This document shows, piece by piece, positions 6,280 to 24,391 of a stretch of 64,000 nt of DNA. How positions within the stretch are numbered: position 1 is the stretch's first letter; each line of letters starts with the position of its first letter. Both the position numbers and the translations under genes were made by a program. The stretch covers positions 3,612-67,611 of the forward strand of contig CAZPVH010000005.1 in the NCBI GenBank assembly GCA_964589975.1, in the 5' to 3' direction. The stretch is from an uncultured Candidatus Saccharibacteria bacterium. Its GTDB lineage: Bacteria > Patescibacteriota > Minisyncoccia > Phycocordibacterales > CSBR16-119. Under the pieces are notes generated by a model. The model did no database searches. It had not been told where the DNA came from and saw only the letters and a program-made list of their open reading frames with translations.

Positions 6280-6346
6280 GGTTTCTGCTTTTATGTAAAA
6301 GTGCTGACCTACAGACTACCACTTTTGTGGTAATTTGTCAATGTTA

Positions 6347-6544: not shown

Positions 6545-6814
6545 TTACGCGCCTTCGTCGACGCTTACTCGCTCGACTCGGCCATACTTCTCGAGGATAC
6601 GAGACATTTCTGCCACGAATTCCTCAAAAGAAGTGAAGTGATCCTCGACCCACGGATTGCATCCGGCAGTCTTCTGGCATCCCGCCACAAAGGTGTTGAC
6701 CCGAGGCCGATAACCAGCCATCGCAGAAATTTCACACAGCCTATCTACGACTTGGAAATTCTCGTAGGTTTGGACAGCCAGACGAAGCTTCGTGATCTCA
6801 GAAATCATGATCAT
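6545..6814 (-). CDS. Small hypothetical protein, 89 aa (MIMISEITKL...); start placed after the E1-B leader
   Basis: Protein-like tail of the over-long ORF-track entry 6545..7261. The ATG sits directly after the conserved leader CTTTAAAACAAAAC...ACCCAC. Confidence 0.4.
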   Translation of the reverse strand: MIMISEITKLRLAVQTYENFQVVDRLCEISAMAGYRPRVNTFVAGCQKTAGCNPWVEDHFTSFEEFVAEMSRILEKYGRVERVSVDEGA

Positions 6815-6860
6815 GTGGGTTTTAATCTGACCGTTTTGTTTTAAAGAGCTCTGAGTGTTT

Positions 6861-6923
6861 CCACTCTTTGAAAACTCGAATTGCTTCAAGTTCTCAAAAG
6901 TGGAGGCCCGCCGAGCGAGCCTC
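6861..6923 (-). promoter_or_regulatory. E1 module copy B
   Basis: Differs from copy A by 2 nt in the core. The downstream leader on the minus strand, CTTTAAAACAAAACGG..AAAACCCAC-ATG, is conserved. Confidence 0.55.
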
Positions 6924-6938
6924 TCCTTCTTCGTGCAC

Positions 6939-7124
6939 CTAATCACTCTCGTTGCGATCGTTGATCGCATCCTGCATGTCGACCAAGCTGTGCAGCTTGT
7001 CGTCACGGTTGGTCTCGCAGGATCGCGACGAGGCAACCAGCCACTCGTTACGGGACGAACGCTCGTCCGCGCAGGCGAACTGCTCGTCAAAGAAGCTCCC
7101 GCAACAGACTTGTCGGTATACCAT
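6939..7124 (-). CDS. Small Cys-rich hypothetical protein, 61 aa
   Basis: ORF-track entry. The start lies about 40 nt downstream of E2 copy c on the minus strand. Contains CC and C-x-x-x-C. Confidence 0.3.
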   Translation of the reverse strand: MVYRQVCCGSFFDEQFACADERSSRNEWLVASSRSCETNRDDKLHSLVDMQDAINDRNESD

Positions 7125-7164
7125 GGTGGTGGGGGTGTTAGGTGGGTTATGTAAAGGTACAATT

Positions 7165-7235
7165 CCCTAAAGATCCGCGAACTGAATTCGTGAACCTTAT
7201 AGAGAGAAGAATATAGTCGTGAGAAAATATTCTTC
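7165..7235 (-). promoter_or_regulatory. E2 module copy c
   Basis: CCCTAAAGATCCGCGAACTGAATTCGTGAACCTTATAGAGAG (1 mismatch versus copy b) plus the hairpin GAAGAATATAGTCGTGAGAAAATATTCTTC. Confidence 0.55.
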
Positions 7236-7389
7236 TGTCTACATATTTGGCAATATTCCACTAAAGCAAAACAAATTTCTTTGCGTTGCTTAGAATGCGG
7301 TCGAACTTTAATATGGGGGTCGACCTAAATTTCAGCCCCTGAGCCCGTAAAAATTTCTTAAACCGGTACTCTTTTGTTTTTTCCCGCCT

Positions 7390-7683
7390 CTACAGGATCG
7401 GCAGATCCAAGGCTTCTCGGAAGAGCGCCTTGATCTCCTCGTCGGACATCTCCGACTTCGGCTTCGAAAGTCCGACCCAGAGAGTACGTCCGCCTCGCGG
7501 GAAGCGGTCATGCAGGTGGCCGTAGTCAACCTCGAGCTTCTTCACCTTAACCACGCTTCGCACATGATAGATGCGAGCTTGGCACGTCGAGCAGTGTCCC
7601 TGCTCGGCGACCTCGAAGTAGAGGCAGCCTTCATGTTCCAAGATCTCACGGCGAGTCTGCCATCCGGCAAGTGCAACCATCAT
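7390..7683 (-). CDS. Small hypothetical protein, about 97 aa (start at MMVALAGW after a CA-rich leader)
   Basis: The conserved leader TTAAAACAAAAAAACCAAAACCCCCCACACCC runs immediately into ATGATG. The upstream residues of the ORF-track entry are leader translation. Confidence 0.4.
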   Translation of the reverse strand: MMVALAGWQTRREILEHEGCLYFEVAEQGHCSTCQARIYHVRSVVKVKKLEVDYGHLHDRFPRGGRTLWVGLSKPKSEMSDEEIKALFREALDLPIL

Positions 7684-8049
7684 GGGTGTGGGGGGTTTTG
7701 GTTTTTTTGTTTTAAGGAACATTTCTGTTTCGCTCTTTTGAGCTCATCAGCGCGAACATACATTCGCGGACAGACAGGAGGAGACAGTGACGTCTCCTCC
7801 CCAGCGTAGAGAGTGATCATCTCTCTATCGCTGTACCCATTTTTTTCTTGTACATGACGGTACAATTGTCGCTTACGAGATCCGTGTCTCGCTGGGGTGC
7901 GCAACAAGAGCTTTTTCCTTCACGGGTTTTTGGTTGTGATTGCAACCATCTATCCGTCTTTGGGCTGGCGCTCAAGCCCTCGCAGTTTCTTCTAAAGAAC
8001 TTTCCCTTCTTCGTAGGCACTTCACTTCAAACTCAAGCCGATATCGCAC

Positions 8050-8388
8050 TTACTGAACGACACAATGGAGAAAAAGCGTGTCATTCATCCACCTGTGTAC
8101 AGTATCTAGCTCATCAATCAGCCTACTGGGGCCATCCCCGCAATCGGCATAATGGAAATCGGCTGAGCTGAAACGATTGATGTCTGACCCTACTACCTGA
8201 CACGTTTGAAGATAGAGCTGATAGTGCTCCCTCGTAAACGGGAATCCTACCAGATGCTTATTTCGCGTCTGGTCTACAAGACAAGACAACTTGGCAAACA
8301 ATCTTGCGATTGTTGGCGCATTGAAGCCGTTGATCATTGTGTCGGCGTATATTGTCATATCACCGACCTTTAAAGTGACTGCCTCCAT
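8050..8388 (-). CDS. Hypothetical protein, 112 aa, driven by E2 copy a
   Basis: Clean ORF. E2 repeat 36-75 nt upstream on the minus strand. Confidence 0.45.
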   Translation of the reverse strand: MEAVTLKVGDMTIYADTMINGFNAPTIARLFAKLSCLVDQTRNKHLVGFPFTREHYQLYLQTCQVVGSDINRFSSADFHYADCGDGPSRLIDELDTVHRWMNDTLFLHCVVQ

Positions 8389-8423
8389 TTTTGCTTTTTA
8401 ATGTACAAGTAATCGGGCGCAGA

Positions 8424-8491
8424 CCCTAAAGATTAACGAACAGAATTCGTAAACCTTATAAGGGGGAGGAGATGTTACAGCATCTCCTCCC
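8424..8491 (-). promoter_or_regulatory. E2 module copy a (more diverged)
   Basis: CCCTAAAGATTAACGAACAGAATTCGTAAACCTTATAAGGGGG plus the hairpin GGAGGAGATGTTACAGCATCTCCTCC. Abuts the 15-nt motif AAGTAATCGGGCGCAG. Confidence 0.5.
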
Positions 8492-8693
8492 TGCAGACTT
8501 CATCGACCACCCGCCTTCAGGGTGGGTCTGCTCGATCCAACTTTATTCCCCCAACATTACTTTTCGCCTGACTTGTCCGGCGACAAAAAGCAGTCGGGGC
8601 CCAGATAATCTAGCTTTGCTCTTAGGCAGCAAAGTGTCGACTGTCCTTCTTGCGGATTGGAATCCCGCTTGTGCATCGTTTTGGAAAGAACTT

Positions 8694-8757
8694 CCACATT
8701 TGAAAATTCGAATGTCTTCAAATACTCAAATGTAGGGAGAAGGCTTTGCCTTCTCCC
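8694..8757 (-). promoter_or_regulatory. E1 module copy C (diverged), immediately downstream of rsr
   Basis: CCACATTTGAAAATTCGAATGTCTTCAAATACTCAAATGTAGG plus the hairpin GGGAGAAGGCTTTGCCTTCTCCC. Followed on the minus strand by a 39-codon ORF (8557..8676). Confidence 0.45.
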
Positions 8758-8833
8758 ACAGATCTACCCCGGAGCCCCCGCCCCTCGATCTGTTTATTAC
8801 ACACCTATGGGCATAGGTGGCGAACGCCCGAGC

Positions 8834-10441
8834 TCACTTGCAGAAGTCTGCGATGAGGCTCGGCACGTTGGAGTCAAACCCAACCAGGTCGAGCATGCCA
8901 GCGTCACTAGGGTCTGCAATACTGAAGTCCGTGGACATCGTAGAGCAGACAACCAGCTTCGCGGGAATGCCCATCTCCTGTCGGTACCGCTTGAGCGCCT
9001 GAGACGGGTGGATTTCTCCAGCCCACGTCTCGTTATCCGTCCAGATCTGAAAAACGTCGACCGGAGTCTTCGCCCTCAGAGCATGGAGGATCGGCAGCGA
9101 GCAGTCGGTACCACCGAAATTGAGACCGTTCACCGCATGCATGTTGTCATCGAGCCTCTTGCGAGGTGAGACGTTCATGTCCTGCAGGCCGGTTCCACTT
9201 CTCCATCCGCGGTCAGCGGAAGTAAAAGCTTTCAGGTGATAGTTGCTTTCGGTCTTCATGACCGCCATGATCATAGCCATTGAGGCCTGCATAGCATTCA
9301 TGAATGGCATCCCAGCAACAGGGCTGTCCCACATCGAGCCGGACACATCCAGTCCGACGAAGATCCTCTTCCCGGTCGCTTCCAGATTCCCGAAGGAACC
9401 GTAGAAAGCGGCGTCAAGAATATCGATCACTCGCTGGACCGGCTTCCAGGTCAATGAGCCGCGCGCGCTCTTCCCGCTTGCGTACGTCACCAGTGCGGCG
9501 AGTACGTTCACAGGGTGGATCCTGGCCTTTTTCAAAGCGACAGGATCCGCGAGCTTCTGCTCGACGACTTTGAGCGCTCCGCTCATCGGCACAATGAGGC
9601 CGTTAGCCGTCATGCGCGCCAAGTTACGAAGCACCGCGGTCATCGGCATACCGGGCAAGAGGGCTTCCCATACCTTCGGGTCGCCGAGGAGCTCGGTTGG
9701 AACGAGCTCCCAGGTTACGCCTTGGTAGTCACCGATGATCTTCACCGCTTCCGCTGCCGTGGTGGCCGCTTGAAGCTTGGTGAAGGCCTCGATGATTTTC
9801 GGGACGCCATCCCCCATCTTTTCCTGAGCCACCCAACGGAACAAGTCCTGGTGCGCTTCGGAAGACGAGTGACTCTTGCGGAGCAGGTCGCGAAGCGACC
9901 AGCCCGAGCGTTGACGATATTTGACAGCTTGGTATGCCAGCTTCTCAGCCGACATGCTCGTCAAATATCCTGCCCAGCCGTTACGGTACTGACGGCTCCA
10001 CGTTCTGCCGAGCTGTTTCGCATTTTCAGCGAAAGCATAGGCGAACGAAAGAGTCCGGAGGACCGCAGGCATGGCCATAAGCGCATACTTCCTGGTTGCC
10101 TCATCGGCAAACTTCGGAGATGCAGCCATGGCGAGGACGAACAGAGCAGGGTCTTGCTTTGCAGCGCGACCCTCCGTCGAAAGTTCGACGACCGTGTCAA
10201 CGACACGCTTTCCGTTCATCTTCAAGCAACGCTGCACGGCTTCGGCATTATCAGTCGTGAGCTCGCGCCCGCCGACGTAGTAGCTGCCGCCGTCGCTACC
10301 AAGGATAATGAACCGCTCAAGGCGCTTCCAATCATCTACCGGGTAAGCGAAACCCCCGGCATTGTTCATCACCATGTTCGATCCTGGAATCGGAGCGTCT
10401 TGTGACGTCCTTTCCGTAGAAAAGTGCTGGGTGTATCTCAT
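8834..10441 (-). CDS. rsr: Ro60-like RNA-binding protein Rsr (TROVE domain with C-terminal vWA/MIDAS domain)
   Basis: N-terminal NNAGGFAYPVDDWKRLERFIILGSDGGSYY matches the conserved TROVE N-terminus of Ro60/Rsr. C-terminal LDVSGSM (a DxSxS MIDAS motif) with downstream T and D residues. GC-rich relative to neighbours. Its 5' leader is the same CA-rich leader used by the adjacent small genes. Confidence 0.8.
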   Translation of the reverse strand: MRYTQHFSTERTSQDAPIPGSNMVMNNAGGFAYPVDDWKRLERFIILGSDGGSYYVGGRELTTDNAEAVQRCLKMNGKRVVDTVVELSTEGRAAKQDPALFVLAMAASPKFADEATRKYALMAMPAVLRTLSFAYAFAENAKQLGRTWSRQYRNGWAGYLTSMSAEKLAYQAVKYRQRSGWSLRDLLRKSHSSSEAHQDLFRWVAQEKMGDGVPKIIEAFTKLQAATTAAEAVKIIGDYQGVTWELVPTELLGDPKVWEALLPGMPMTAVLRNLARMTANGLIVPMSGALKVVEQKLADPVALKKARIHPVNVLAALVTYASGKSARGSLTWKPVQRVIDILDAAFYGSFGNLEATGKRIFVGLDVSGSMWDSPVAGMPFMNAMQASMAMIMAVMKTESNYHLKAFTSADRGWRSGTGLQDMNVSPRKRLDDNMHAVNGLNFGGTDCSLPILHALRAKTPVDVFQIWTDNETWAGEIHPSQALKRYRQEMGIPAKLVVCSTMSTDFSIADPSDAGMLDLVGFDSNVPSLIADFCK

Positions 10442-11021
10442 GACGAGGGTTTTTGGTTAGGTTTGTTTTTTGAAAGACCGGAGAGACCAGAAGCGGATAA
10501 GGTGTGAAGAAAGGGTTAAAGATGGCGGCCAAAGCTCGCCATCCAGGTCAAATATTTGGGTAACCTTCCTTCTTCGACCCGCTTCTGGTCTCAATTATCA
10601 ATGCTCGAAACATGCTTTCGAGCGGATTTTGAGAGAAATATTAGTGATTTCTTCCAAAATCCGCCCAAGAGCCAACTGTATACTAATCAATCGAAGCCAT
10701 ATAAATATATTTTGCTTGATCCAGATCAGTTTTGTTGCTGTTGTTTTGAGACTGTTCTAAATGTTTCTGGGTAAAGCTTAGCAGATTCGAAATGATTTGT
10801 CAAGTATTTTTGTCGAGAATTCTATTTTTTGTCAGAATAGCCTTATTTTACAACATATTTTTGTTTATGTAAAAAAACAAAAATTGACTATTTTTATTTA
10901 TTCTTGAAAATATTTTTGCAAATAAAATAATTATTTTTCTAATACGTCAAAGATTGTTTTTGAATGAAAACTTATAAAATCTTGCAGTGAAATACTTTTT
11001 TGGAACTAATTTAAATATAGT

Positions 11022-11440
11022 TGACAAAAAATGACATGTCTGATATACTCCCCCCAGATGTGATTCATAGCTCAAGCGTTCATGGGAAGCGGGTTATCTG
11101 CATAGACAAAGAGAAATCTACGCAGAAATGATGGGTATCCAGACAATTACGATGACTGGAACCCAGATGTGAACAGTCACAGAACCGTCCCACACCTAAC
11201 CTCACGGCCATGAACGACTAGGGAGCACCCGTCCTGCATCCGCCAGCCCACCCTTTGTGGGCGGCGGATGCGGAAGGGTCACCTCGAGCAATCAATTCGC
11301 AGTAAGCACATGCACGACTAGAACAGAAGACATGGAAAACCTCATTGGAAATGGTCAGGATCACTACCCCTGACCACGCACCACAGTCATGAATGACTGA
11401 AGAGAACAAGAGCCCGCAACGGATGTTGCGGGCTCTCTTT
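11022..11440 (+). ncRNA. Candidate structured non-coding RNA (about 390 nt) with its own sigma70-like promoter and intrinsic terminator; class unknown
   Basis: TTGACA (11022-11027), 17 bp, TATACT. No ORF over 25 codons on the plus strand. Strong internal hairpins (11236-11275, 11364-11387). Ends in a GC hairpin plus T-run at 11404-11440. The motif CATGMAYGACTRG occurs three times. Confidence 0.5.
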
Positions 11441-11445: not shown

Positions 11446-12192
11446 TTATTTGGATCCGCCAAAGGCGAGCTTGAACAAACTTCGGAGCGTTTCAGCCACA
11501 TCAGCGCTTTTTATAAAAATCGTACCAGCATGCTTGCCGAATATGTGAATCCTAACGCTTTCATTGTATATTCCAATTTCCGCTTTTATAGGATATTTTT
11601 CAGGATCTATCCTCTTTCTGTCCATTGTTATATCGGATGTATACTCGCCTTTGGAATATGAGTAGATTGAAACTATTTTTACGTTTTTTTCAATTCTTTT
11701 TTTCTTTACAGGCTCAAGCTCTTTTGGAGTAAAACTCTTCTCCACTTCATCGCGCGGATAAATCACATACATGAGACCGCCTTCTCCTCCGTCAAACATA
11801 TTTCTTGCCGATCGCAGAATCTCTTCCTGACCAGTGTAGTATTCGACGATGGGCCTCTCGCCAAGTCCTCTTGCCACTGCTTTGAATTTCGGGACCATAT
11901 CTTTTACGATCTTCGACTGTTCTGAAAGTTTTATCTTCTGCTCCTCTATATAGCTCTCTATTCTCTCCGGCGGGAGAGCGTGGATGTAAGTTTTTTCATT
12001 TTTCGTTATCTCCTCTACCAAACCTTTTTCAGTAAGAGAATCTATGACTGGATAAATAGTTGTTCTGTTAATTTTAGTTTTTTTGGAAATTTCTGCCACA
12101 TTTGGCTCATCCACCGTCAGCAAGAACATATAGACCTTTGCTTCTTTATCTGACAAACCAACCTCGACGAGAAATTTTTCTAGGTTTTCCAT
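11446..12192 (-). CDS. TrmB-family HTH transcriptional regulator, paralog 2 of 4
   Basis: N-terminus SDKEAKVYMFLLTVDEPNVAEISKKTKINRTTIYPVIDSLTEKGLV. Confidence 0.7.
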   Translation of the reverse strand: MENLEKFLVEVGLSDKEAKVYMFLLTVDEPNVAEISKKTKINRTTIYPVIDSLTEKGLVEEITKNEKTYIHALPPERIESYIEEQKIKLSEQSKIVKDMVPKFKAVARGLGERPIVEYYTGQEEILRSARNMFDGGEGGLMYVIYPRDEVEKSFTPKELEPVKKKRIEKNVKIVSIYSYSKGEYTSDITMDRKRIDPEKYPIKAEIGIYNESVRIHIFGKHAGTIFIKSADVAETLRSLFKLAFGGSK

Positions 12193-12653: not shown

Positions 12654-12880
12654 TTTGACTTTTTATCTTAAACATGCTATTATATAGACATGGAAGCAGT
12701 TCTTTCTTACCTCCCGCACGTTGCGTGCACCATGATGATCGGCTATGCCCTGTGCACAGCCTTCGACTACTGGGGCCCCAAGCCCCAGGAAGATGCGCAA
12801 CCCTGACGGAACTGTCCATAACCAAAACCTGCGGACTTCGGTCCCGAGAGAGGCCTGCACATGCGGGCCTTTTTCCTTTT
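12654..12880 (+). ncRNA. Candidate small non-coding RNA (about 200 nt), GC-rich, promoter-to-terminator unit; class unknown
   Basis: TTGACT-17-TATTAT promoter at 12654-12688. GC-rich body with hairpins (for example GCACGTTGCGTGC and CGGACTTCGGTCCCG). Intrinsic terminator GGCCTGCACATGCGGGCC plus T-run at about 12846-12878. Overlapping ORFs on both strands are not protein-like. A separate TTGACA-16-TAGTAT promoter for the next gene follows. Confidence 0.4.
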
Positions 12881-12939
12881 ATTGACAAAGTATAATTCGT
12901 ATGTAGTATTCAGAATAAATCTCCTTTCAAAACTGCAGC

Positions 12940-14019
12940 ATGACTACCGGCAAACCTCCTCCGACCAGAATTCAGATCTTCATAGATGGACGAAACTTTT
13001 ATCATGTAAGCCGACACTACCGCTTCGATCACCCTGTTGGAAGTTTCATCAATCTCCGCGGACTTCAGGGATTCATACGCAAAAAGGTCGCAGAATTTCT
13101 AGGCATGGAACTTGAAGCTGCAACGATCACCAGGTGCCACCTGTTCATGGGAACAGACAGAGATAAAAAGGATGCCTTGCACGAGATCCTTCGAAACCGT
13201 GGCGTTCGACTTCACTGGCACGCTCTCGTAAAAAGAGAAGACGGACAAAAGAAAGAACTTGGTGTCGATGTTGGCTTGGCGACATCCGCACTGTCCGCTG
13301 CCTATGAAGACAAGATGGATGTGATGGTACTGCTCGGCGCAGACGGCGACTTCTACCCCGCAATCGCCCAAGTCCAGCATCTAAAGAAAAAAGTGGTGCT
13401 CGCATTCTGGGATATTCTGCCTTCTCCGAACAACAAGCTCTCGAAGCGCATAACCACAAGCAATTCATTGATACGGATGGCGGATTTCATCATCAATATG
13501 CGCGTGGAGATGAACGCGATGCTGGAAGGGCAAACCGAGGAAGCAAAATTTATCTTCGGGACCAAAGGCGAAAACTTCACCCCGACGGAAAATCAAGTCT
13601 ATCAAGACGTCTCTCCGGTCACTCCGCCAGAGACAACCCAACCACGTCCGCAAAAACCTCCGATCACTCCAGCTCCAACAGTGCACAAGGCTCCCGAGCA
13701 GCCACGTGCGCCCAAGGTAGCTGACAAGAAGCCCGTTCCAACACTGAACCCAAAACAACACGAAAGACGGAAACGAAGAGAGTCTCCGAAGTTCGATACC
13801 ACCAAACAGCGCGGCAGAATCACTCAGAAGAATAACAATGTCGGCTACATTCTCCCGCTTGAAGGAAAAGAACTGATCCCTTTCCTCAAGTATGATCTGA
13901 AACTTACCAACACCGACTTTGACGCTCTCTCTGCCGGATCTTTGGTGGAGTACACAGTTGCCAAGGGGGCCCGAGCCGGCAAGGATCTGGCCACCAACAT
14001 CTGCATCGTACATGAATAA
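12940..14019 (+). CDS. NYN-domain (LabA/PIN-like) ribonuclease fused to a C-terminal cold-shock-like domain, paralog 1
   Basis: IFIDGRNFYH ... GVDVGLATSA ... DVMVLLGADGDFYPAI is characteristic of NYN/LabA. The C-terminus GRITQKNNNVGYILP...FLKYD...GSLVEYTVAKGARAGKDLATNI resembles a CSD/S1 fold. A Pro-rich linker sits between the domains. Confidence 0.65.
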   Translation: MTTGKPPPTRIQIFIDGRNFYHVSRHYRFDHPVGSFINLRGLQGFIRKKVAEFLGMELEAATITRCHLFMGTDRDKKDALHEILRNRGVRLHWHALVKREDGQKKELGVDVGLATSALSAAYEDKMDVMVLLGADGDFYPAIAQVQHLKKKVVLAFWDILPSPNNKLSKRITTSNSLIRMADFIINMRVEMNAMLEGQTEEAKFIFGTKGENFTPTENQVYQDVSPVTPPETTQPRPQKPPITPAPTVHKAPEQPRAPKVADKKPVPTLNPKQHERRKRRESPKFDTTKQRGRITQKNNNVGYILPLEGKELIPFLKYDLKLTNTDFDALSAGSLVEYTVAKGARAGKDLATNICIVHE

Positions 14020-14103
14020 GAAGCGCCGCCCACCCGGGCGGCGCTTTTTGACAAACAACATTTTATAAGTACTATATGTCACAGACAAAACACGTAAAGC
14101 ACC

Positions 14104-14973
14104 ATGAAAACAGACAGCCCTTTGCGCGCAGGGGTGTTTATTGACGGTACATATTTTGGCATCGTAAATAAGCACTACCAAGACCTTCCGGGATTACAAA
14201 AACCAATAGATCATGCCGGGCTACTCTCGTTCCTCCAACGACAAACAGCAGAATTACTCAGTGTCACAAGAGATGGCCTGACTATCACCCGGCGTCACAT
14301 GTATCTTGGGCTCCCTTTAGGAGCAAGCATCTCCAACATGCGATGGCAACAAGAAGCAATGCTCAAAGTCGACATTGATCTCCAGCACTTCCCCATAAAG
14401 AATAACGGCGGAGGAATAGCAAAAGAACAAGGCGTCGATGTGGCATTAGCCTGGGACGCCGGCTACGAGTCTTCGAAACTCGACGTCTACATACTCATCA
14501 CCGGTGATGGGGATTTCATTCCCCTAGTCGATAAGCTGCAGAGTATTGGGAAAAAGGTAATCCTGGCATACTGGCATGTCGGCTCCGAACCGGGCAAAAC
14601 CTCTCGTACCAATACCGACCTCATCAGATCCGCAACACACTCTGTCAACATGAGACAAAAGATAGAGGTTGGCCTAGCGAGCGGAGACAAGCATATCTGT
14701 AAAATCTTCGGCCCCAATCATCAAATACCCGAAGCAAAACCGAAAAAGAATGGCGCACTCGAAATATTCGAAGGAGTCATTCTCTCTCAAACGACAACGG
14801 GGGGCCGCATCAGAAAGATTCCGATCGGAAACAAGAAGAGAACATTGGTATTTTTCAAGGAAGAGGTGGAGGGCGCGCCGTTCAAACACTTTGAACCAGA
14901 TCGCAAGGTTCAATTTTCCATTGTTTACGAAAACAACATGAAACGAGCTATCCACGTAAAGCTCATCGCATAG
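14104..14973 (+). CDS. NYN-domain ribonuclease fused to a C-terminal cold-shock-like domain, paralog 2
   Basis: VFIDGTYFGIV ... GVDVALAWDAGYE ... DVYILITGDGDFIPLV. C-terminus EGVILSQTTTGGRIRKIP...FFKEE...QFSIVYENNMKRAIHV. Same architecture as the upstream gene. Confidence 0.65.
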   Translation: MKTDSPLRAGVFIDGTYFGIVNKHYQDLPGLQKPIDHAGLLSFLQRQTAELLSVTRDGLTITRRHMYLGLPLGASISNMRWQQEAMLKVDIDLQHFPIKNNGGGIAKEQGVDVALAWDAGYESSKLDVYILITGDGDFIPLVDKLQSIGKKVILAYWHVGSEPGKTSRTNTDLIRSATHSVNMRQKIEVGLASGDKHICKIFGPNHQIPEAKPKKNGALEIFEGVILSQTTTGGRIRKIPIGNKKRTLVFFKEEVEGAPFKHFEPDRKVQFSIVYENNMKRAIHVKLIA

Positions 14974-15011
14974 CACAACCGAAACGCCAGCTTCTTAGGA
15001 AGCTGGCGTTT

Positions 15012-16526
15012 TTATTTCACTTTATATTCGTCCCGGATTTTTTTTATTTCTTCTCCTTCGGCATCGTCCTTTGCGCTCTTCCCCGCCTCGCCGAGCTTCC
15101 GGAGGTGCTCATCTGTCATTTCCAGTAATTGCTTGGCGCGAGTCTGTAGGTATTCTTCGGTATTTTTATTCGGATCGTCTAAGACTTCTTCTAGGAGTGC
15201 ATGAAGCGTCCAGCTGAAGCGCGGCCCCGGTTTCTCCCCCATCTCTTTCAGCTTATTGCCATCAATCTTGAGCATCCCGACGTTGATCGGATCACGCATC
15301 ACTTCTTCAATCATGGACTCAAATTTCCTGAGGCGATACGGCTCCTCCTTCGGGCGGCCCATCCCAATCCTGTCGCAGATCCTGAGGTCTATGAGGTCCC
15401 AAACGTTCTCGGCGCCAACTTTCGCGACCAATCTCCGCACGGCCGAAAGCGTGATCTGATCCGTGTCAGAGAAAAACATGTGATACCGAACGAGTCGATA
15501 AATTTTTTCCGTGAAGTCGCTCCCCATTTTAAGCCTCTCGCAAATTTTCCGCGCGAGCTTTCCGCCCACCACGTCGTGGCCATAAAACGTGTAATCATTT
15601 TTTTCTTTGGACCATTCTCTGGTATGAGGTTTCGCGATATCGTGCAGAAGTCCCGCAAGCCGGATATGGAGCGGCCAGTCTTTATCCGCCGCGTGTTGCA
15701 TAGTGCGGAGATTGTGTTCCCAGACATCATAAATGTGTTCCCCGTTTTGTTCGACACCAATGCCGATTTCGAGCTCGGGAATAATATATTTCAAGATTCC
15801 AAGTTTCTGCGCCATCGAAATACCGACAATTGGTTCCGGCGCCATGAGCATTTTGAGAAACTCATCGCGAATACGTTCGGCGGAAATATTTTTGAGGAGA
15901 TCAACATGCTTTGCCATAGCCATCATCGTTTCGGCCTCTATCACAAATCCGTGCTGCGTTGAAAATCTAACAGCGCGTAAAATTCGGAGCGCATCTTCCT
16001 GAAAACGCTCCTCAGCATTTCCGACTGCCTTGATCATCTTATCTTTGATTGCCTCCCTACCATCGTACAGGTCAACAAGCTCTCCGCTCGCTGGATCATA
16101 GGCAATGGCGTTCATGGTGAAGTCGCGACGTTTTAGATCGTCGCTTAAAACTTTTGAAAATTTTACTTCGTCCGGATGTCTGTTGTCCGAATAAGCAGAC
16201 TCAAGCCGGTAAGGAGTAACCTCGATAACTTTTAAGGCTTCATCCTCTGTAATCTTATTCTCTACCCCAACTGTACCGAATTTGTTTTCATAAAAAGTAT
16301 CAGGAAAAATACTCTGGATTTCTTCCGGCGTCGCATTAGTGGTTACATCCCAATCTTTCGGGGTTTTGCCGGTTAAAAGATCACGAACACAACCGCCCAC
16401 AATGTAGGCCTCGAAACCGGCCTTTTGAAGACTGTCAGTTACAAGCCGAACTTCGGCTGGAATATTAAAATTTTCCTTTCCATTCATAGTATAGATTTTA
16501 GCAGATGAGACTTCCCTGTTGTGCAC
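15012..16526 (-). CDS. cca: CCA-adding tRNA nucleotidyltransferase with HD domain (true start may be the internal MNGKENFN at about 16487)
   Basis: YIVGGCVRDLLTGKTPKDWDVTT (Pol-beta-like nucleotidyltransferase head) followed by an HD phosphohydrolase region (HDIAKP). Bidirectional terminator at 14976-15011. Confidence 0.8.
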   Translation of the reverse strand: MHNREVSSAKIYTMNGKENFNIPAEVRLVTDSLQKAGFEAYIVGGCVRDLLTGKTPKDWDVTTNATPEEIQSIFPDTFYENKFGTVGVENKITEDEALKVIEVTPYRLESAYSDNRHPDEVKFSKVLSDDLKRRDFTMNAIAYDPASGELVDLYDGREAIKDKMIKAVGNAEERFQEDALRILRAVRFSTQHGFVIEAETMMAMAKHVDLLKNISAERIRDEFLKMLMAPEPIVGISMAQKLGILKYIIPELEIGIGVEQNGEHIYDVWEHNLRTMQHAADKDWPLHIRLAGLLHDIAKPHTREWSKEKNDYTFYGHDVVGGKLARKICERLKMGSDFTEKIYRLVRYHMFFSDTDQITLSAVRRLVAKVGAENVWDLIDLRICDRIGMGRPKEEPYRLRKFESMIEEVMRDPINVGMLKIDGNKLKEMGEKPGPRFSWTLHALLEEVLDDPNKNTEEYLQTRAKQLLEMTDEHLRKLGEAGKSAKDDAEGEEIKKIRDEYKVK

Positions 16527-16661
16527 CGCTAGGACTCTCGACTACCGTCGCGGGTACTTTTCCACCTCGCTACGCTCGTACGGAAAAGTCTTTCTCGTCC
16601 TGACGGAAGCAAAGCAGTTTGCTTCCTGCGGGTGCACAAAGTTTCGCTCCGCTCTACTTTG

Positions 16662-16733: not shown

Positions 16734-16931
16734 AGTCAATTTTTAAAAGCCTAACACTTTTCTATGCGGGTAAGGAGAATCGTCCACAACTCTCGCTGCG
16801 CGAGGTCGCCGGCCCCGCCTCATTCGTCGCCCGCCTGCGGCAGGCCGACATCATTCCGGCTTTCGATTCTCCACGCAGGGCAAGCAGTTGCCCTGCCCTA
16901 CCCGACACATAAAAAGCGAATTTGCTTTTCT

Positions 16932-17002
16932 GTGCGGGTAGGGAGAATCGAACTCCCGTCTCGTCCTTGGCAAGGACGTGTTCTACCACTAAACCATACC
17001 CG
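16932..17002 (-). tRNA. tRNA-Gly (anticodon GCC)
   Basis: Manual fold. Acceptor GCGGGTA/TACCCGC, anticodon stem CGTCC/GGACG with loop TTGCCAA, T-arm GGGAG-TTCGATT-CTCCC. Confidence 0.8.
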
Positions 17003-17089
17003 CAAATTAACCCTGTTACAATATCAATTTTCTCCAATAAATACAAGAAAGCCCGCATTACGCGGACTTTCGGAAAAAAGCTCTGATGA

Positions 17090-17395
17090 TCAGCGTCCCC
17101 ACACCTGATCCTTCAGTCTGTGATAGGAAGGCTCACTGTCTGTAGCAGGGTTCGAGACGAGGTGTTCGTGAAGTGCAACATCAATTTCACAGGTCATGCA
17201 TACATCGCTGTCGGCGCCAAATCCCTGTGACGCCCAACAGTAATTGGACACTCGGGCTGGCTGATGTTCACCAAACAGCCTTGGGAATATGAAGCCATGG
17301 CCAACTTGTATGTGTAGTGGCCAATTTGTAACGTCGCACTGAATTGCGTTCAGTTCTGTTCTTCCACGGGCGATAAAGGTCAATGAGGCTTTCAT
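17090..17395 (-). CDS. Hypothetical Cys/His-containing small protein, 101 aa
   Basis: Clean ORF with C...C and CMTC motifs suggesting metal binding. Family not recognised. Confidence 0.35.
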   Translation of the reverse strand: MKASLTFIARGRTELNAIQCDVTNWPLHIQVGHGFIFPRLFGEHQPARVSNYCWASQGFGADSDVCMTCEIDVALHEHLVSNPATDSEPSYHRLKDQVWGR

Positions 17396-17777
17396 GGTGG
17401 TCGGATTGTTGTTTTCTACATACTATCATGATATTTATCTAATGTCAATTATGTCCTTTATCCCCCTTTCCCACATGTTTGTCCCCAATGTCTCATATAT
17501 TTAGTGAAAAACATTGTGTTGTAAAATAAGGATTTTTTAGTCCACATATGTGGATAACCCTGTTTATAAGGTGTATAAGTATGGTTATTTGTCTTATAAA
17601 CCAAAAAAACTTGTTGATTTATAAGGGTTTTCTGTAAGTGTTTCACATGAAACACTTATTTAGCTCTTATAGTGTTCCACATGTAACTTTGTACTATCCT
17701 TGATATTATAAGTTAAGTAGATTTGTCGATGTTATTCATGAAACATAACAGGATGTCTTTGTGAAAATGAACTAGAT

Positions 17778-18997: not shown

Positions 18998-19645
18998 CTA
19001 CTGGACCAGAGGAAGAACTGGCGCATTCTGGGGTATTTTGAACTGTTTTTGCAGAAGTTCGAGTTTCAGTTTTCCCGAGAACAAGTGCAACTGACTAAGC
19101 AAAGACTTAAGCTTTTCGAACATCTCTTGCCCCTTGGCCAAATCTTCGTATGTTAGGGTGTAGATACGCTTGTATCCGCCCTCAATCGGCCGGTCAAATG
19201 AAATCATCTGCATATCCTCAAGGATTTGCAACGCGTAAGCGCTTGATTTCATTACATCGATGGCTAAATGAATGTCGCAGGCCTTTGTGACATCCGGAGG
19301 GCAAGTCTTAAGCTCAAAAGATGGCAACTTGTTTTGCTCCGCCAACTGTCCTTTGGTCAGAGGCTCAAAGAAGATCTTTAGTTCGGAACTGCTCGATTCG
19401 AATTCGAGATCAGCCACTGTTTCCGGATATTGACGCACCAGATCGCATACTTCCTCAAAAAACTCTTCGTTAATAGTGCGAGATCCTTTGTAGGTAGCGT
19501 GGAATTGAGTAGTTGAGCATCTTTTGTTGTTGGTAAAGAGATCTCTTTCGAAGCCCCATGACAATAGGGCGTTAATCAGACTCTGTTCAACCTTGTAACC
19601 AGAGAAATGCAGGTCGTATGTTTTCATTTTTAAGTTTTGTAGCAT
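18998..19645 (-). CDS. Hypothetical protein, 215 aa
   Basis: Clean ORF. No family recognised. Confidence 0.4.
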   Translation of the reverse strand: MLQNLKMKTYDLHFSGYKVEQSLINALLSWGFERDLFTNNKRCSTTQFHATYKGSRTINEEFFEEVCDLVRQYPETVADLEFESSSSELKIFFEPLTKGQLAEQNKLPSFELKTCPPDVTKACDIHLAIDVMKSSAYALQILEDMQMISFDRPIEGGYKRIYTLTYEDLAKGQEMFEKLKSLLSQLHLFSGKLKLELLQKQFKIPQNAPVLPLVQ

Positions 19646-19744
19646 TATTCATAAATTTTAAAGTATTGTCAAAATAGATTATAATCTTTATAATAATAAT
19701 GCCTATAATTATTGATTAATAATGATATATAATTATATTTAATA

Positions 19745-20506
19745 ATGACAATTAATATAAACCTCGGGTTAAAAAATAAACTGAAAGACTTTGGGCTACA
19801 TCCTTCAGAAATTAGGTTATATCTTTTCCTATTAGAAAATGGTGTGCAAACTGTGTCCGAAATCTCCAAAGGAACAGAAACACTCAGAACAAACTGCTAC
19901 GGAATCGTCAAAAGCCTTCTGGATAAGGGCCTTGTGCAGTCGCTTAAACAATCCGGGGTAAAAAAATACACAGCAAACAATCCTCAAGCACTGCTAAGGA
20001 GCATCGAAGACAAAAAACGGATGGTCGCCGATGATTTGGTCCCTGAGCTCTTAAATATATTCAAATCACAAAAGAATAAGCCGATTATAAAATTTTATGA
20101 AGGCAAAGAAGAGGTAAAAGAAATATTCCTTCAAATGTATGAGGCAAAAGAAATATTCGGTTTTACATCTACGAAGAAGCTTCTGCCTTTTTATCCTAAA
20201 TTCTTTGTCGAGTGGCGGAGCGAGCTTAAGCGCCGGGGGATATTCTTGAAAGACATGCTTACAGAGTCATCAAAAGACATCGAGGCGAAACAAGTAAAGG
20301 AAGAACTTGGTGTATTTTTTGAAAATAGAATAGTTCCTGCGAAATTTGGCGACGTAGCGTCTGACATTTTGGTGTGGAACGATAATATTGCACTTATTAC
20401 CCTCGATGAGCCTATATTTGGCACAGTAATAAATAATCCGGAATTAGCCCAGACTTTTAGGGTTATGTTTTCTATTATGTGGAGGAGTCTCGGGCAAGAC
20501 CGGTAG
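19745..20506 (+). CDS. TrmB-family HTH transcriptional regulator, paralog 3 of 4
   Basis: N-terminus GLHPSEIRLYLFLLENGVQTVSEISKGTETLRTNCYGIVKSLLDKGLV. The stop codon abuts the left inverted repeat of the mobile element. Confidence 0.7.
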   Translation: MTININLGLKNKLKDFGLHPSEIRLYLFLLENGVQTVSEISKGTETLRTNCYGIVKSLLDKGLVQSLKQSGVKKYTANNPQALLRSIEDKKRMVADDLVPELLNIFKSQKNKPIIKFYEGKEEVKEIFLQMYEAKEIFGFTSTKKLLPFYPKFFVEWRSELKRRGIFLKDMLTESSKDIEAKQVKEELGVFFENRIVPAKFGDVASDILVWNDNIALITLDEPIFGTVINNPELAQTFRVMFSIMWRSLGQDR

Positions 20507-20707
20507 TTGGTGGAATTATATAACTCTGCTCGAACCCATTTTGAACGAAACTAAGGACTGCGCCTCGCCCGCGCTCGGCAAGCTCGCGCGGGGCAAAGCC
20601 CAAAAATTTCCCACATTTTTTATTTGCGGCTCCCCCCACACCCCCCGCCGCAAGGCGGAAAATTTGAAAGGAAGGAAATTTTTGGTTTTGCCGTCGCCGC
20701 TTCACTC
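20507..20707. repeat. IR1-L: 201-bp perfect inverted repeat, left copy (partner 24698-24898)
   Basis: The identical 55-codon ORFs 20541..20885(+) and 24661..24864(-) in the ORF track reveal the repeat. I compared the two copies in the nucleotide sequence and found no mismatch between 20507-20707 and the reverse complement of 24698-24898, but this was not machine-verified. The outer end is TTGGTGG. Confidence 0.85.
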
Positions 20708-20868
20708 CTCCAAAAAGGCTCGTAGGTGTATTTTAGCACTTTTGCCAGATTTACGCCCGCCTTTTCTCCGTCGTTTGCGTCGGCGCGAGGACGCAGGCAT
20801 TTTTATATGTGCTTGCCCCAACCCACCCAGTGCGCGCACAAATACCGCTCGCTACGCGAGCGGCTCCC

Positions 20869-21660
20869 TTATGTTCGGGAGCTAACCAAGTTATTTTTCA
20901 AACCCTCTAACATTTTTACAAAATGCACCGTGAACGCAAAAAAGGTATTGAAGTATTCGGCTGTTTCATCGGTCGTAACCCCCTCAATAAACGCAAAATC
21001 ACGGTAGTTTGAGCGTATTCGCATATAGTATGGAAAGTCAAAAATGGACACAGAAAAATTGCTCAAATAGTTTTGGTATTTTGTCTTGTCTGATTTTTTC
21101 TTGAGATTGATTTTATTTGTCTGTTTCCAGTTATCTACTTTGTATTTGGCAATTTTTCTGACTGCCATTTTGTACATATCATCATCTGTCGTCCTTGAAC
21201 TCAAATTAGCTCCACTTGTTACTTTATGGGCCAAAATGGTTTGGTCAAAAACCTGATTCAAAATAGTATTTGAAAATTGGATTTCTTGTGCTTGCAATTT
21301 CCGTGTAAATTCATCAACGCATTTTGTATGTCCTAATTTGAAAATTCCTTTTTGAATTTTGATTACATATTCAACAGTCAAAAGTACATTGAAAATGAGA
21401 TAGTAAGATTTTACAGGTAGCCAAGATGTTGAGGCATATGAATAGTCCTTATCAATATCAACAATCTTTTTCTCGTCGTTCAATGACTTTTTTGTGAGGG
21501 CAATAAGATTTTTCTTTTGATCAATATTTGGCAATCCAGCTTTTTGTATAGAATTATTGTATTGCAAAGTTGTGCCGTTCATCAGAGAAGCAAGGCATTT
21601 GATGTAATTCAAATGCGTATCATATGCCTGATGTTCTGGCGTGTTTCGGAGTAAAATCAT
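20869..21660 (-). CDS. Hypothetical protein, 263 aa, inside the R-M cassette (function unknown; second nuclease or specificity factor is possible)
   Basis: Clean ORF whose stop overlaps the start of the downstream methyltransferase by 4 nt. AT-rich codon usage like the rest of the cassette. Confidence 0.45.
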   Translation of the reverse strand: MILLRNTPEHQAYDTHLNYIKCLASLMNGTTLQYNNSIQKAGLPNIDQKKNLIALTKKSLNDEKKIVDIDKDYSYASTSWLPVKSYYLIFNVLLTVEYVIKIQKGIFKLGHTKCVDEFTRKLQAQEIQFSNTILNQVFDQTILAHKVTSGANLSSRTTDDDMYKMAVRKIAKYKVDNWKQTNKINLKKKSDKTKYQNYLSNFSVSIFDFPYYMRIRSNYRDFAFIEGVTTDETAEYFNTFFAFTVHFVKMLEGLKNNLVSSRT

Positions 21661-22442
21661 TTTGTCTGTGTGGCGTAAGAACTTACGCGATTTCTAGCAA
21701 GGGCGACATATTTTTCATCGCGTTCAACACCTAACCATTTACGACCTAATGCTTCGGCTACAACAGCAGTTGTTCCGCTTCCCATAAATGGATCAAAAAT
21801 GATGTCGCCCTTGTTGCTTGCGGCTAAAACGACCTGCTGTATCAATTTGAGCGGTTTCTGTGTCGGGTGCGCTTTTATGCCATTTCCATCTTTCAATCGT
21901 TCCTTGCCTTTACAAAGACCGAAAACCCAATCTGTATCTTTCATTTGAACGCCGCCATTCAGTTTTTTCATCAAGTCGTAATTGAAAGTGTATTTTTTGC
22001 AATCCTTGTTTTTGACCGACCAAATAAGTGTTTCGTGATTATTTGTAAACCTGCGTCCGTTTAGGTTTGGCAAGGCATCAGTTTTTACCCAAATAACATC
22101 GTTCAAAAACCATAATCCAAGATTTTGCATTATCGTGCCAACGCGAAAAATGTTGTGATACATTCCGATAACCCAAAAAGTTCCTGTGGGTTTCAAAATC
22201 CTTTGGCATTCACTAATCCAAGCGTGTGTAAAATTATCGTAGTCCTCATAACCCTCAAAACTATCCCATTCGTTATCCACAGGTATAACTTCCGAGCCGT
22301 CGGCTCGTTTTAGGCGTTTTCCTTTTGGTAGTTGTAGATAATAGGGCGGGTCGGCAAAAATCAAATCAACGGAATTGTCGGGGAGTTTTTTCATTTCCTC
22401 TATACAATCTCCGTGTATGATTGTGCCGAATAACTTTTGCAT
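21657..22442 (-). CDS. DNA methyltransferase, beta-class (N6-adenine or N4-cytosine), with DPPY before the AdoMet motif
   Basis: IFADPPYYL (motif IV) precedes IIFDPFMGSGTTAVVA (motif I), the circular permutation typical of beta-class N6A/N4C methyltransferases. Confidence 0.75.
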   Translation of the reverse strand: MQKLFGTIIHGDCIEEMKKLPDNSVDLIFADPPYYLQLPKGKRLKRADGSEVIPVDNEWDSFEGYEDYDNFTHAWISECQRILKPTGTFWVIGMYHNIFRVGTIMQNLGLWFLNDVIWVKTDALPNLNGRRFTNNHETLIWSVKNKDCKKYTFNYDLMKKLNGGVQMKDTDWVFGLCKGKERLKDGNGIKAHPTQKPLKLIQQVVLAASNKGDIIFDPFMGSGTTAVVAEALGRKWLGVERDEKYVALARNRVSSYATQTK

Positions 22443-22444
22443 AA

Positions 22445-23566
22445 CTAAAAATTGTAGATAATGAGGTGTTCTACATCTCTATCATTGCGACCTTTGACAT
22501 TGTAGAGATAGGTTTTATCAAACCTATCAATTTTTATGCCTTTCTTATCTTTGTATAAACTAGATATGAACGGTGTGTCTTTGATTATGAGAATAAAATT
22601 TGCCTTCGTATCGTATAGACAATTAGCCAATCGTTGTTGATCTTTTTTATCAAACTCGTTTTTTTCATAATCGCTGAAATCTGTATCGTATGGCGGATCA
22701 AGAAAGATAAAATCTTTTTTTGAGAATTGATACTCATTGAATATGTCCTCAAAATCTTGATTTTTAATATCTGTGTTTTGGAATAGTTTTTTTATTGCTT
22801 CGTCAAAAATATAATCCACTTTTCCGCGAAAATCTTTGCTGTTGTAAGCAATCCCACCATAAGGAATGTTGAAATGCCCGTCTTTGTTGAAGCGAAACAT
22901 TGAACCATAGCAAAACTCCCTTATGAAGTAATAATTTGCAACCTTTTTGGGCAAGCTGATTTTATATCTGCTTCCGTTATAATTCATCACATCGCGAAAG
23001 TGCATATAAAATCCGCTACGAAACGCTGTTTCAATGTTTTTTTGCAAATCACCGTCTGGCAATTTTCCGCGTTGTTTTTCAATCTCTCTGGTGCGAGAAA
23101 TTTTTGATATAAGGTTAGAGGTGATTTGCTTTAATAAGTTTTGCTCGTCCAAACAAAACTCTTTATGAAAAAGTCCATTGAAACGATCTTCTTCTTTTTC
23201 TTGTATTGAATGAACCTGTTTTGATAATTCTTCCCTTGTGATTTTTTCTGCTTTATATTTCTCGTAGAGATTTATTATTTTGTTCTCAAAAATACTGATG
23301 TATTTCGGGATTTTGTCCCAATTATCAACATAATCGTAAAGTTCTTTTTTGAATTGTTCGCGTTGTTTTTGGTCTTTGAGTAGAGAATAAAAATTTGTCA
23401 GTTCGGTATTTATATCGTTGATAATTGCCTTTTTTGGCTTGAGTTGAAAAAAAATTGCGCCACCACCAAAAAACGGCTCGATGTAGCGTTCAAAAGTAGG
23501 AATTAAATCCTTAATGTAGGGATATTCTTTTGTCTTGCCACCCGGCCATTTTATAAGTGGTTGCAT
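22445..23566 (-). CDS. Dam-family (D12 class, alpha-type) N6-adenine DNA methyltransferase
   Basis: N-terminal IKWPGGK (Dam motif) and C-terminal FLDPPYD. 373 aa. Confidence 0.75.
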   Translation of the reverse strand: MQPLIKWPGGKTKEYPYIKDLIPTFERYIEPFFGGGAIFFQLKPKKAIINDINTELTNFYSLLKDQKQREQFKKELYDYVDNWDKIPKYISIFENKIINLYEKYKAEKITREELSKQVHSIQEKEEDRFNGLFHKEFCLDEQNLLKQITSNLISKISRTREIEKQRGKLPDGDLQKNIETAFRSGFYMHFRDVMNYNGSRYKISLPKKVANYYFIREFCYGSMFRFNKDGHFNIPYGGIAYNSKDFRGKVDYIFDEAIKKLFQNTDIKNQDFEDIFNEYQFSKKDFIFLDPPYDTDFSDYEKNEFDKKDQQRLANCLYDTKANFILIIKDTPFISSLYKDKKGIKIDRFDKTYLYNVKGRNDRDVEHLIIYNF

Positions 23567-23567
23567 A

Positions 23568-24386: not shown

Positions 24387-24391
24387 AATAG

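Follow-up and report, generated by a model that had tools for sequence, protein, structure and literature searches.

A tandem pair of NYN-cold-shock domain proteins, putative ribonucleases, encoded beside cca in an uncultured Saccharibacteria bacterium

We analysed a stretch of 64,000 nucleotides (nt) from an uncultured Candidatus Saccharibacteria bacterium (assembly GCA_964589975.1, contig CAZPVH010000005.1, positions 3,612 to 67,611 of the forward strand), hereafter the window. Its positions 12940-16526 hold two tandem genes, each encoding an NYN domain of the PIN-like nuclease type fused to a C-terminal cold-shock domain (CSD), which are followed on the opposite strand by cca, the gene for the CCA-adding tRNA nucleotidyltransferase. 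Two tRNA genes and rsr, the gene for an ortholog of Ro60, lie in the vicinity. The first-pass annotation of this DNA had interpreted the whole group as a dedicated RNA quality-control or defence module. Our results point instead to a pair of stand-alone, probably RNA-directed nucleases, whose place beside cca is inherited gene order and whose nearness to rsr is of recent date.

Two NYN-cold-shock domain paralogs in tandem

The two genes are on the plus strand, and each was found to have a promoter-like site and a terminator hairpin of its own, in agreement with what had been proposed at first pass. The features of the pair are as follows.

12882-12909, plus strand: promoter-like site of paralog 1 (TTGACA, 16 nt, TAGTAT; 10/12 matches in a consensus scan)
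12940-14019, plus strand: NYN-CSD paralog 1, an open reading frame (ORF) of 359 amino acids (aa)
12967-13407: NYN domain of paralog 1 (aa 10-156; Pfam PF01936)
About aa 215-285 of paralog 1: low-complexity linker rich in Pro, Lys and Arg, roughly 70-80 residues
13807-14010: divergent CSD of paralog 1 (about aa 290-357)
14021-14046, plus strand: terminator hairpin of paralog 1 (11-bp stem with 9 GC pairs, then TTTTT)
14048-14075, plus strand: promoter-like site of paralog 2 (TTGACA, 16 nt, TACTAT; 10/12 matches in a consensus scan)
14104-14973, plus strand: NYN-CSD paralog 2, an ORF of 289 aa
14125-14640: NYN domain of paralog 2 (aa 8-179; Pfam PF01936)
14764-14964: divergent CSD of paralog 2 (aa 221-287)
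14981-15012: terminator hairpin common to the convergent paralog 2 and cca (14-bp stem, T-runs on both sides)

The promoter-like site of paralog 1 lies directly 3' of the terminator of a preceding small transcription unit, and inspection of the sequence revealed that the TTTTT of the paralog 1 terminator runs on into the -35 box of paralog 2.

Both proteins matched the NYN family PF01936 well over its curated cut-off of 24.2 bits (paralog 1, 58.5 bits, E 1.5e-15; paralog 2, 57.4 bits, E 3e-15), and they are 31% identical to each other over 249 aa (E 1e-27), which identifies them as paralogs and bears out the tandem NYN pair described at first pass. The acidic residues conserved in the family are all retained, as D16, E106, D110, D135 and D137 in paralog 1 and as D14, E108, D112, D135 and D137 in paralog 2, and these columns are 90-99% conserved among 84 family members. 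In the AlphaFold model, which was available for paralog 2 only (mean predicted local distance difference test score, pLDDT, 77.9), the N-terminal domain matched the LabA-like NYN structure 2qip (Foldseek E 1.3e-8, target template modelling score, TM, 0.70). By hidden Markov model and by fold, the catalytic domain belongs to the same family as the LabA-like NYN proteins (COG1432, PF01936; 2qip is VPA0982).

The retention of the acidic residues bears on the possibility that the two proteins are non-catalytic regulators of the LabA type, binding transcripts through the CSD and a surface of the NYN domain and leaving them uncleaved. In a 2017 survey of the PIN superfamily, no nuclease activity had been reported for COG1432, LabA was known as a regulator, and the group was listed with one to five conserved active-site residues, so that some members are probably inactive (PMC5499597). 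Both window paralogs, however, have lost none of the acidic positions that show at least 90% conservation in the 84 members, a result that would be unexpected if catalysis were dispensable at a paralog identity of 28-31%, and we consider such a regulatory role unlikely.

The C-terminal domains are more divergent. The Pfam CSD family PF00313 gave no match at E<=0.1 in either full-length protein, and the isolated C-terminus of paralog 1 reached 13.8 bits (E 0.054), below the cut-off of 27. Within the family, all 84 full-length members match NYN and 65 of them also match PF00313, with a consensus of G-F-I ... F-F-H ... G-D-x-V-x-F ... A-x-x-V in the CSD. A profile built from nine C-termini of the Patescibacteria (Candidate Phyla Radiation, CPR) clade matched solved CSDs, namely those of Drosophila Unr (1.9e-11), human CSDE1 (1.8e-7), CspC (3.8e-4) and CspB (1.7e-3). 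Moreover, the model of paralog 2 shows a five-stranded C-terminal barrel (strands 221-229, 233-238, 247-251, 268-276 and 279-287; pLDDT mostly 86-93) that resembles Bacillus subtilis CspB bound to RNA, with a target TM of 0.80 and a root-mean-square deviation of 2.3 A. From family membership, the clade profile and the model, we conclude that the C-terminal domains are divergent CSDs. The first-pass annotation had predicted a C-terminal domain of the CSD or oligonucleotide/oligosaccharide-binding (OB) fold type, with HHpred or Pfam as the check; the prediction stands, although in the Pfam check PF01936 alone was well over its cut-off and PF00313 on its own missed both proteins.

Compared with the reference CSD motifs (RNP1, GFGFI; RNP2, VFVHF), those of the window proteins are in part conserved. 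The RNP1 aromatic is a tyrosine in paralog 1 (G302-Y303-I304), which has P-F-L with F315 at RNP2. In paralog 2, an arginine replaces the RNP1 aromatic (G234-R235-I236), and F250 is kept within the V-F-F of RNP2.

Two tandem NYN-CSD copies were also found in L007, one of the contigs from uncultured Patescibacteria that form a clade with the window, the other clade members carrying a single copy. In a neighbour-joining tree, paralog 1 of the window pairs with the upstream copy of L007 (50% identity, same tandem position), and paralog 2 falls in a clade that contains the downstream copy (39% identity), while the two paralogs within one genome are 28-30% identical. This pairing, together with the tandem arrangement in L007, shows that the duplication is old, having preceded the split of these organisms, and that both copies have since been maintained.

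A catalogued family and its relatives

An exhaustive profile search, for which the five closest full-length sequences served as query, recovered 2755 proteins at E<=1e-3. There were 396 matches at E<=1e-10 and 77 at E<=1e-30, these two counts being clusters at 50% identity, and most of the top matches align end to end over both domains. A word-index search for homologs had returned only 1 and 8 matches for the two proteins. Family members occur in Patescibacteria, Bacteroidota (for example WP_264690925.1 from Hymenobacter and MBX2929746.1 from Saprospiraceae), Spirochaetota (Treponema), Betaproteobacteria (a metagenome-assembled genome, MAG, of Zoogloeaceae) and Planctomycetota (a MAG). They are named 'NYN domain-containing protein' at NCBI and 'uncharacterized LabA/DUF88 family protein/cold shock CspA family protein' at IMG.

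Fusions of bacterial DUF88/NYN domains to OB folds of the S1/cold-shock type were already mentioned by Anantharaman, Zhang and Aravind in 2010 (PMC2848206). With this early mention, the cluster counts given above and the spread over several phyla, the architecture is not uncommon, contrary to what had been stated at first pass. In the 2017 survey, the LabA-like NYN family comprised about 8,750 sequences, COG1432 was of unknown function with nuclease activity tested in no member, and bacterial NYN domains were tied to tRNA and rRNA processing by gene neighbourhood alone (PMC5499597). We found no later report of nuclease activity for COG1432/LabA-like proteins, and no work on NYN-CSD proteins specifically. 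The window proteins are new, divergent members of a family that is catalogued yet uncharacterised.

The NYN-CSD proteins of Bacteroidota, Spirochaetota and Proteobacteria are full-length homologs (profile E 1e-36 to 1e-39 for the representatives P0015, P0020 and P0028) with the same conserved residues. They differ from the window proteins, to which they are 23-28% identical, in having canonical CSDs (GFI and FFH motifs, Pfam CSD matches), in being single-copy and in lying in unrelated neighbourhoods. The general layout has several known counterparts. PRORP, MARF1 and Regnase-1 likewise combine an NYN metallonuclease domain with a separate RNA-recognition module, but they belong to other NYN subfamilies, use PPR, LOTUS/RRM and CCCH modules for binding, and are comparable in architecture. 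PRORP, the protein-only RNase P, acts on pre-tRNA; since rnpA, the gene for the protein of RNase P (PF00825), is present in the relatives of the window, a protein-only RNase P is not needed there. In RNase II and RNase R, OB folds of the CSD or S1 type also capture single-stranded RNA for an attached nuclease, and two members of our family weakly match OB_RNB as well. Those enzymes, however, are 3' exonucleases of the RNB family with N-terminal CSDs, whereas the window proteins have a PIN-like endonuclease fold and a C-terminal CSD. The same order of domains, an N-terminal NYN domain and then a C-terminal nucleic-acid-binding domain thought to recruit the substrate, is found in the NYN + OST-HTH proteins ('LK-nuclease'), which were proposed to be stand-alone RNA-degradation systems (PMC2848206). 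In the window proteins the partner is a single divergent CSD and OST-HTH is absent, and the tandem pair is found in the Patescibacteria clade, whose CSD is degenerate and scores under the Pfam threshold.

A short LabA-like NYN protein of about 180 aa, lacking the CSD, was observed 3' of rpsO (the gene for S15) and on the same strand at 41 other Patescibacteria loci (L013-L058, e.g., L044 3491-4314 and L035 9527-10345); a locus search with an alignment of five sequences had returned mostly this family. The two genes are at most 400 nt apart in 32 of these 41 loci, rpsO lies further upstream in 4 more, and their stop and start codons sometimes overlap; the usual order is cca-exoIII-xerC-rpsO-NYN. 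The slot 3' of rpsO is held by pnp in Escherichia coli and many other bacteria. These short proteins match the window proteins at E ~1e-9, against 1e-22 to 1e-27 for the NYN-CSD proteins of Bacteroidota. In 12 Patescibacteria loci cca lies within 10 kb of an NYN gene, which we considered as a conserved linkage and rejected, because the genes belong to this rpsO-linked short family.

Gene order, rsr and candidate RNAs around the pair

The neighbouring genes that had been grouped with the NYN-CSD pair at first pass are the following.

15012-16526, minus strand: cca, a class II CCA-adding tRNA nucleotidyltransferase with an HD domain, 504 aa
16661-16733, minus strand: tRNA-Arg(tcg), found by ARAGORN and Rfam, upstream of cca, with no encoded CCA
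16932-17003, minus strand: tRNA-Gly(gcc), found by ARAGORN and Rfam, upstream of cca, with no encoded CCA
8834-10441, minus strand: rsr, Ro60 ortholog (vWA_Ro60 4.7e-57, TROVE 1.2e-33)

The cca protein has the head (PolyA_pol, PF01743, 1.5e-37), RNA-binding (PolyA_pol_RNAbd, PF12627, 7.8e-20) and HD (PF01966, 2.9e-12) domains expected from its first-pass assignment to the HD-type CCA enzymes; its best NCBIfam model is CCA tRNA nucleotidyltransferase, with 266.5 bits, just under the cut-off of 290. Reading of the 3' flanks showed that CCA is missing from four of the five window tRNA genes, and the enzyme is therefore an ordinary essential housekeeping gene product.

An NYN-CSD gene stands tail-to-tail with cca in all seven genomes of the clade that were examined, the window included. 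The contigs with this arrangement, all from uncultured Patescibacteria, are L001, L007, L075, L076, L077, L082 and L088; their orthologs are 28-55% identical to the window proteins (about 28% in L088, the most distant), and L077 has one extra ORF between the two genes. The tRNA-Arg and tRNA-Gly genes also flank cca in L001, L075 and L082, and the L077 contig ends after tRNA-Arg. The two tRNA genes of L075 (3183-3448) are in the same order as in the window and both on the opposite strand relative to cca, an orientation that is not explained by one inversion. The gene order shared by the clade extends much further, from exoIII through a variable segment, dagK, NYN-CSD, cca, tRNA-Arg/tRNA-Gly, a small ORF and UPF0102 to tRNA-Pro/tRNA-Gly, HU, RNase Y, an R3H/Jag-like gene, yidC, rnpA, dnaA and dnaN. 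As the whole block from exoIII to dnaA is collinear, the adjacency of NYN-CSD and cca is no better conserved than its surroundings. In addition, paralog 2 and cca are convergent and do not form one transcription unit.

Outside the clade, neither cca nor rsr was found in the fetched flanks of any of the five members inspected. The neighbours of the NYN-CSD gene are asd and a peptidyl-prolyl isomerase gene in L078 (Bacteroidota), mfd and ydjM in L080 (Hymenobacter), a glycosyltransferase gene in L084, a hemW-like gene and, downstream, dnaX in L009 (Zoogloeaceae), and a TonB-type receptor gene and unannotated ORFs in L012 (Planctomycetota). With the adjacency absent from these five members and part of the background synteny of the clade, the functional linkage to cca suggested at first pass is not supported. 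The place of the pair beside cca and the tRNA-Gly/tRNA-Arg genes is inherited gene order near dnaA, which is compatible with a role in tRNA maturation but is no evidence for one.

The vicinity of dnaA, the presence of exoIII a few genes away in the clade and that of dnaX downstream in L009 might suggest single-stranded-DNA nucleases acting in replication or repair, all the more as CSDs bind single-stranded DNA and the PIN-like superfamily includes flap endonucleases. Nevertheless, PRORP, Regnase-1 and MARF1 all act on RNA, the best matches of the C-terminal profile were the RNA-binding domains of Unr/CSDE1, and the neighbourhoods in other phyla are not DNA-repair contexts. A role on DNA seems to us very unlikely.

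The first-pass annotation had placed the pair next to rsr and two tRNAs. The tRNA genes are indeed just upstream of cca, but 2.5 kb separate rsr from paralog 1; a TrmB-like gene, dagK and about 1 kb of non-coding DNA with RNA candidates lie in this interval, and rsr is therefore nearby and not adjacent. Its protein scored 445 bits with the NCBIfam model Rsr, for which the equivalog cut-off is 900. The rsr segment has a GC content of 50-54%, against about 44-45% nearby. No Rsr homologue was found among the fetched loci of other organisms, the only one being in L005, from the same organism as the window, which is also present in the source samples SRR16481186/7, and none in the 4.6-10 kb upstream of the NYN gene in L001, L077 and L082. 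Furthermore, in L001 the distance between a conserved hammerhead ribozyme and the TrmB-like gene is about 475 nt, and in the window rsr and its flanking RNAs stand between these two elements. The higher GC content, the absence from the fetched loci of other organisms and the spacing in L001 indicate a lineage-specific insertion. We conclude that rsr is a separate, recently acquired gene outside the conserved neighbourhood, and its proposed linkage to the NYN pair is not upheld.

The rsr region has some likeness to the Rsr/Y RNA/PNPase (RYPER) system and to rsr-yrlBA-rtcBA operons, in that rsr is 2.5 kb from the pair and a Y-RNA-like candidate lies 40 nt upstream of it. It differs from them in that the window neighbourhood has no rtcB or pnp, the Rfam models of Y RNA and YrlA do not match the candidate, and rsr is unlinked to NYN-CSD in every other genome examined. 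The candidate itself (10482-10593, either strand; the distance to the rsr start is 40 nt) has a perfect terminal stem of 14 bp, about 16 bp in the fold, and a branched distal domain; it folds with z = -6.8 on the rsr strand, and its position and shape are Y-RNA-like. It gave no Rfam Y_RNA or YrlA match at E<=10, and a search for rsr relatives for Y-RNA covariation returned two loci, without usable upstream sequence or similarity.

These results allow an evaluation of the idea that the two NYN-CSD proteins, the HD-type CCA enzyme, the tRNAs and Rsr make up one dedicated module for the quality control of tRNA or structured RNA, in which, for instance, NYN-CSD would cleave precursor or defective tRNAs, with repair or tagging of their 3' ends left to the CCA enzyme. 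The tail-to-tail arrangement with cca in all seven clade genomes, even in L088 at about 28% identity, the tRNA-Arg and tRNA-Gly genes flanking cca in the same genomes and two GC-rich tRNA-like elements behind those tRNAs in the window agree with it, and earlier proposals based on gene neighbourhood tie NYN domains to tRNA and rRNA processing (PMC5499597). On the other hand, convergent genes with separate promoters and a common terminator imply that NYN-CSD and cca are not co-transcribed, and the exoIII-UPF0102-HU-RNase Y-yidC-rnpA-dnaA region is collinear in these very genomes. Neither cca nor rsr is close to the gene in the five members from other phyla, rsr was not found in the upstream DNA available for the relatives and belongs to a segment of higher GC content, and cca would be required in any case, as four of the five tRNA genes lack CCA. 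Such a module is thus quite unlikely; as a unit it is unsupported, cca being housekeeping, rsr inserted and the adjacency background synteny.

Defence by RNA targeting had also been suggested at first pass, and we considered it as defence against phages or a toxin function. In PADLOC, the proteins gave weak local matches to a LabA-like NYN model (E 8.6e-8 and 2.5e-4) and to the candidate system HEC-09 (E 3.8e-8), and variable islands lie on both sides of the pair (5485-10441 and 18998-26500). The PADLOC matches, however, span only about 55-60 residues of the NYN core, and the neighbouring genes match nothing there. A partner or antitoxin gene is absent, PHROGs gave no match for the NYN proteins, and the genes are part of a stable syntenic backbone, outside the variable islands, their position being kept across seven genomes. 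We regard this explanation as extremely improbable.

The segment that surrounds rsr carries further elements. The window hammerhead, a type III ribozyme (7722-7776, minus strand; 44.2 bits, E 1e-8), scores just under the Rfam gathering score of 48.5, as does its homolog in L001 (5972-6026, minus strand), with 42 bits. The core CUGAUGAG / CGAAAC / GUC is intact, and between the two genomes, the stems of both hairpins and a further hairpin upstream show compensatory changes. The window ribozyme is on the strand of rsr, some 1 kb downstream of that gene, and directly adjoins the start codon of the ORF at 7390-7722; this 110-aa ORF was tried as a homolog of its positional counterpart in L001, and the two are not homologous. 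The hammerhead core motif was also found twice in L038 and once each in L041 and L071. Three TrmB-like helix-turn-helix genes (4328-5053, 11446-12192 and 19745-20506) occur within 20 kb, every one of them bordering a variable segment, and L038 has a close homolog (E 9e-64) of the second, upstream of its two hammerhead motifs.

Two more candidate RNAs lie between rsr and paralog 1, both on the plus strand. The first, at 11056-11440, is a structured RNA candidate of about 385 nt (minimum free energy -149.6 kcal/mol, z = -6.4) with a near-consensus promoter at 11021-11049 (TTGACA, 17 nt, TATACT and an upstream TG) and a strong terminator at 11409-11436. It contains CATGMAYGACTR three times, with no other mismatch-free copy in the window. 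A plausible ORF is lacking, and neither Rfam nor a blastn comparison with the relatives gave a match. The second is a small independent transcription unit between dagK and paralog 1 (12655-12875), about 190 nt from promoter to terminator (12690-12875), which is positionally conserved in L082 (4333-4567). It could be a small RNA (fold z = -3.7) or a leaderless ORF of 38 aa (12690-12806); homology across genomes among the small ORFs between dagK and the NYN gene was not convincing. RNase P RNA, 6S, SRP, tmRNA or a known ribozyme were considered for 11056-11440 and 12690-12875 and rejected, with no support from Rfam or ARAGORN.

On the other side of cca, the two GC-rich tRNA-like elements (minus strand, 130-150 nt) lie directly 3' of tRNA-Gly(gcc), at 16765-16912, and of tRNA-Arg(tcg), at 16530-16660. 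Each ends in a near-copy of the T-arm and acceptor 3' strand of its tRNA, and both share a CUGC-loop hairpin (2 matches against 0.05 expected). The fold of the Gly-linked element has z = -4.4, and a homolog of this element occurs in L077 (9955-10051); both elements are absent from L001, where the two tRNAs are 14 nt apart. They may represent tRNA-like RNAs, or else what is left of elements that had inserted at tRNA genes.

Upstream of the tRNA genes, 17047-17413 (minus strand) was rejected as a structured RNA (fold z = -1.1) and is more likely a 101-aa ORF, ORFs of 84-101 aa being present at the same position in relatives. The DNA between this ORF and UPF0102 (17420-17657) is about 69% identical to that of L001, L075 and L082, unusually conserved for non-coding DNA at such divergence, and contains one perfect DnaA box (17549-17557) and the best promoter match of the minus strand; the GC skew changes sign nearby. 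A replication origin at about 17.5 kb was considered and rejected, as the skew has a plateau from 17 to 33 kb and DnaA boxes cluster around dnaA (31.4-33.0 kb). Further along, a block of about 7.6 kb with low GC content (18998-26500; 36-45%) between tRNA-Pro(tgg) and tRNA-Gly(tcc) contains unannotated ORFs and the third TrmB-like gene, and it is probably an inserted island, since the same two tRNA genes are just about 90 nt apart in L001.

Proposed function

Taken together, we lean towards the view that each protein is a stand-alone, metal-dependent endoribonuclease of the LabA-like (COG1432) NYN family, engaged in housekeeping and cutting single-stranded RNA that its CSD recruits. Activity, RNA specificity and role are predicted here from what is established for the PIN-like and NYN families and from the biology of CSDs, and action as nucleases on RNA is the interpretation that we find most reasonable. 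The active site, made up of four Asp and one Glu, would be that of the PIN-like NYN domain, and the C-terminal CSD would bind single-stranded RNA and present it for cleavage, with the basic, Pro-rich and presumably disordered linker of paralog 1 helping in RNA capture. The proteins would serve RNA processing or turnover in a Patescibacteria lineage with small genomes, the old tandem duplication having given rise to two diverged copies. These probably have different substrate preferences, because paralog 2 lost the RNP1 aromatic. A housekeeping role is consistent with the core syntenic location near dnaA in seven clade genomes, and with the occurrence of the members from other phyla singly among unrelated housekeeping genes.

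Several points weigh against this interpretation. The founder of the family, the cyanobacterial LabA, is known from genetics alone, as a regulator of clock output, and CSDs bind single-stranded DNA as well. Moreover, the CSDs of the window proteins are degenerate and under the Pfam threshold, with Arg at the RNP1 aromatic position in paralog 2, so that the binding of nucleic acids may be weakened or altered. Finally, according to the 2017 survey, nuclease activity had been demonstrated for none of the COG1432/LabA-like proteins (PMC5499597).

A broader and rather doubtful extension would be that the LabA-like NYN nucleases of Patescibacteria, that is, the short rpsO-linked form and the NYN-CSD form beside cca and the tRNAs, are core enzymes of RNA processing or decay that replace absent machinery. 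Under such a scenario, NYN-CSD might cut tRNA precursors or trailers before CCA addition, or the adjacent tRNA-like RNAs.

The present result is at the level of annotation, and what looks like an RNA surveillance cluster owes its appearance mostly to chance in gene order and to an inserted rsr segment. The NYN-CSD proteins, being core and anciently duplicated in very small genomes, are nevertheless reasonable candidates through which the family might be given an RNase activity and a substrate, and such an assignment could help to fill gaps in the RNA-processing repertoire of Patescibacteria.

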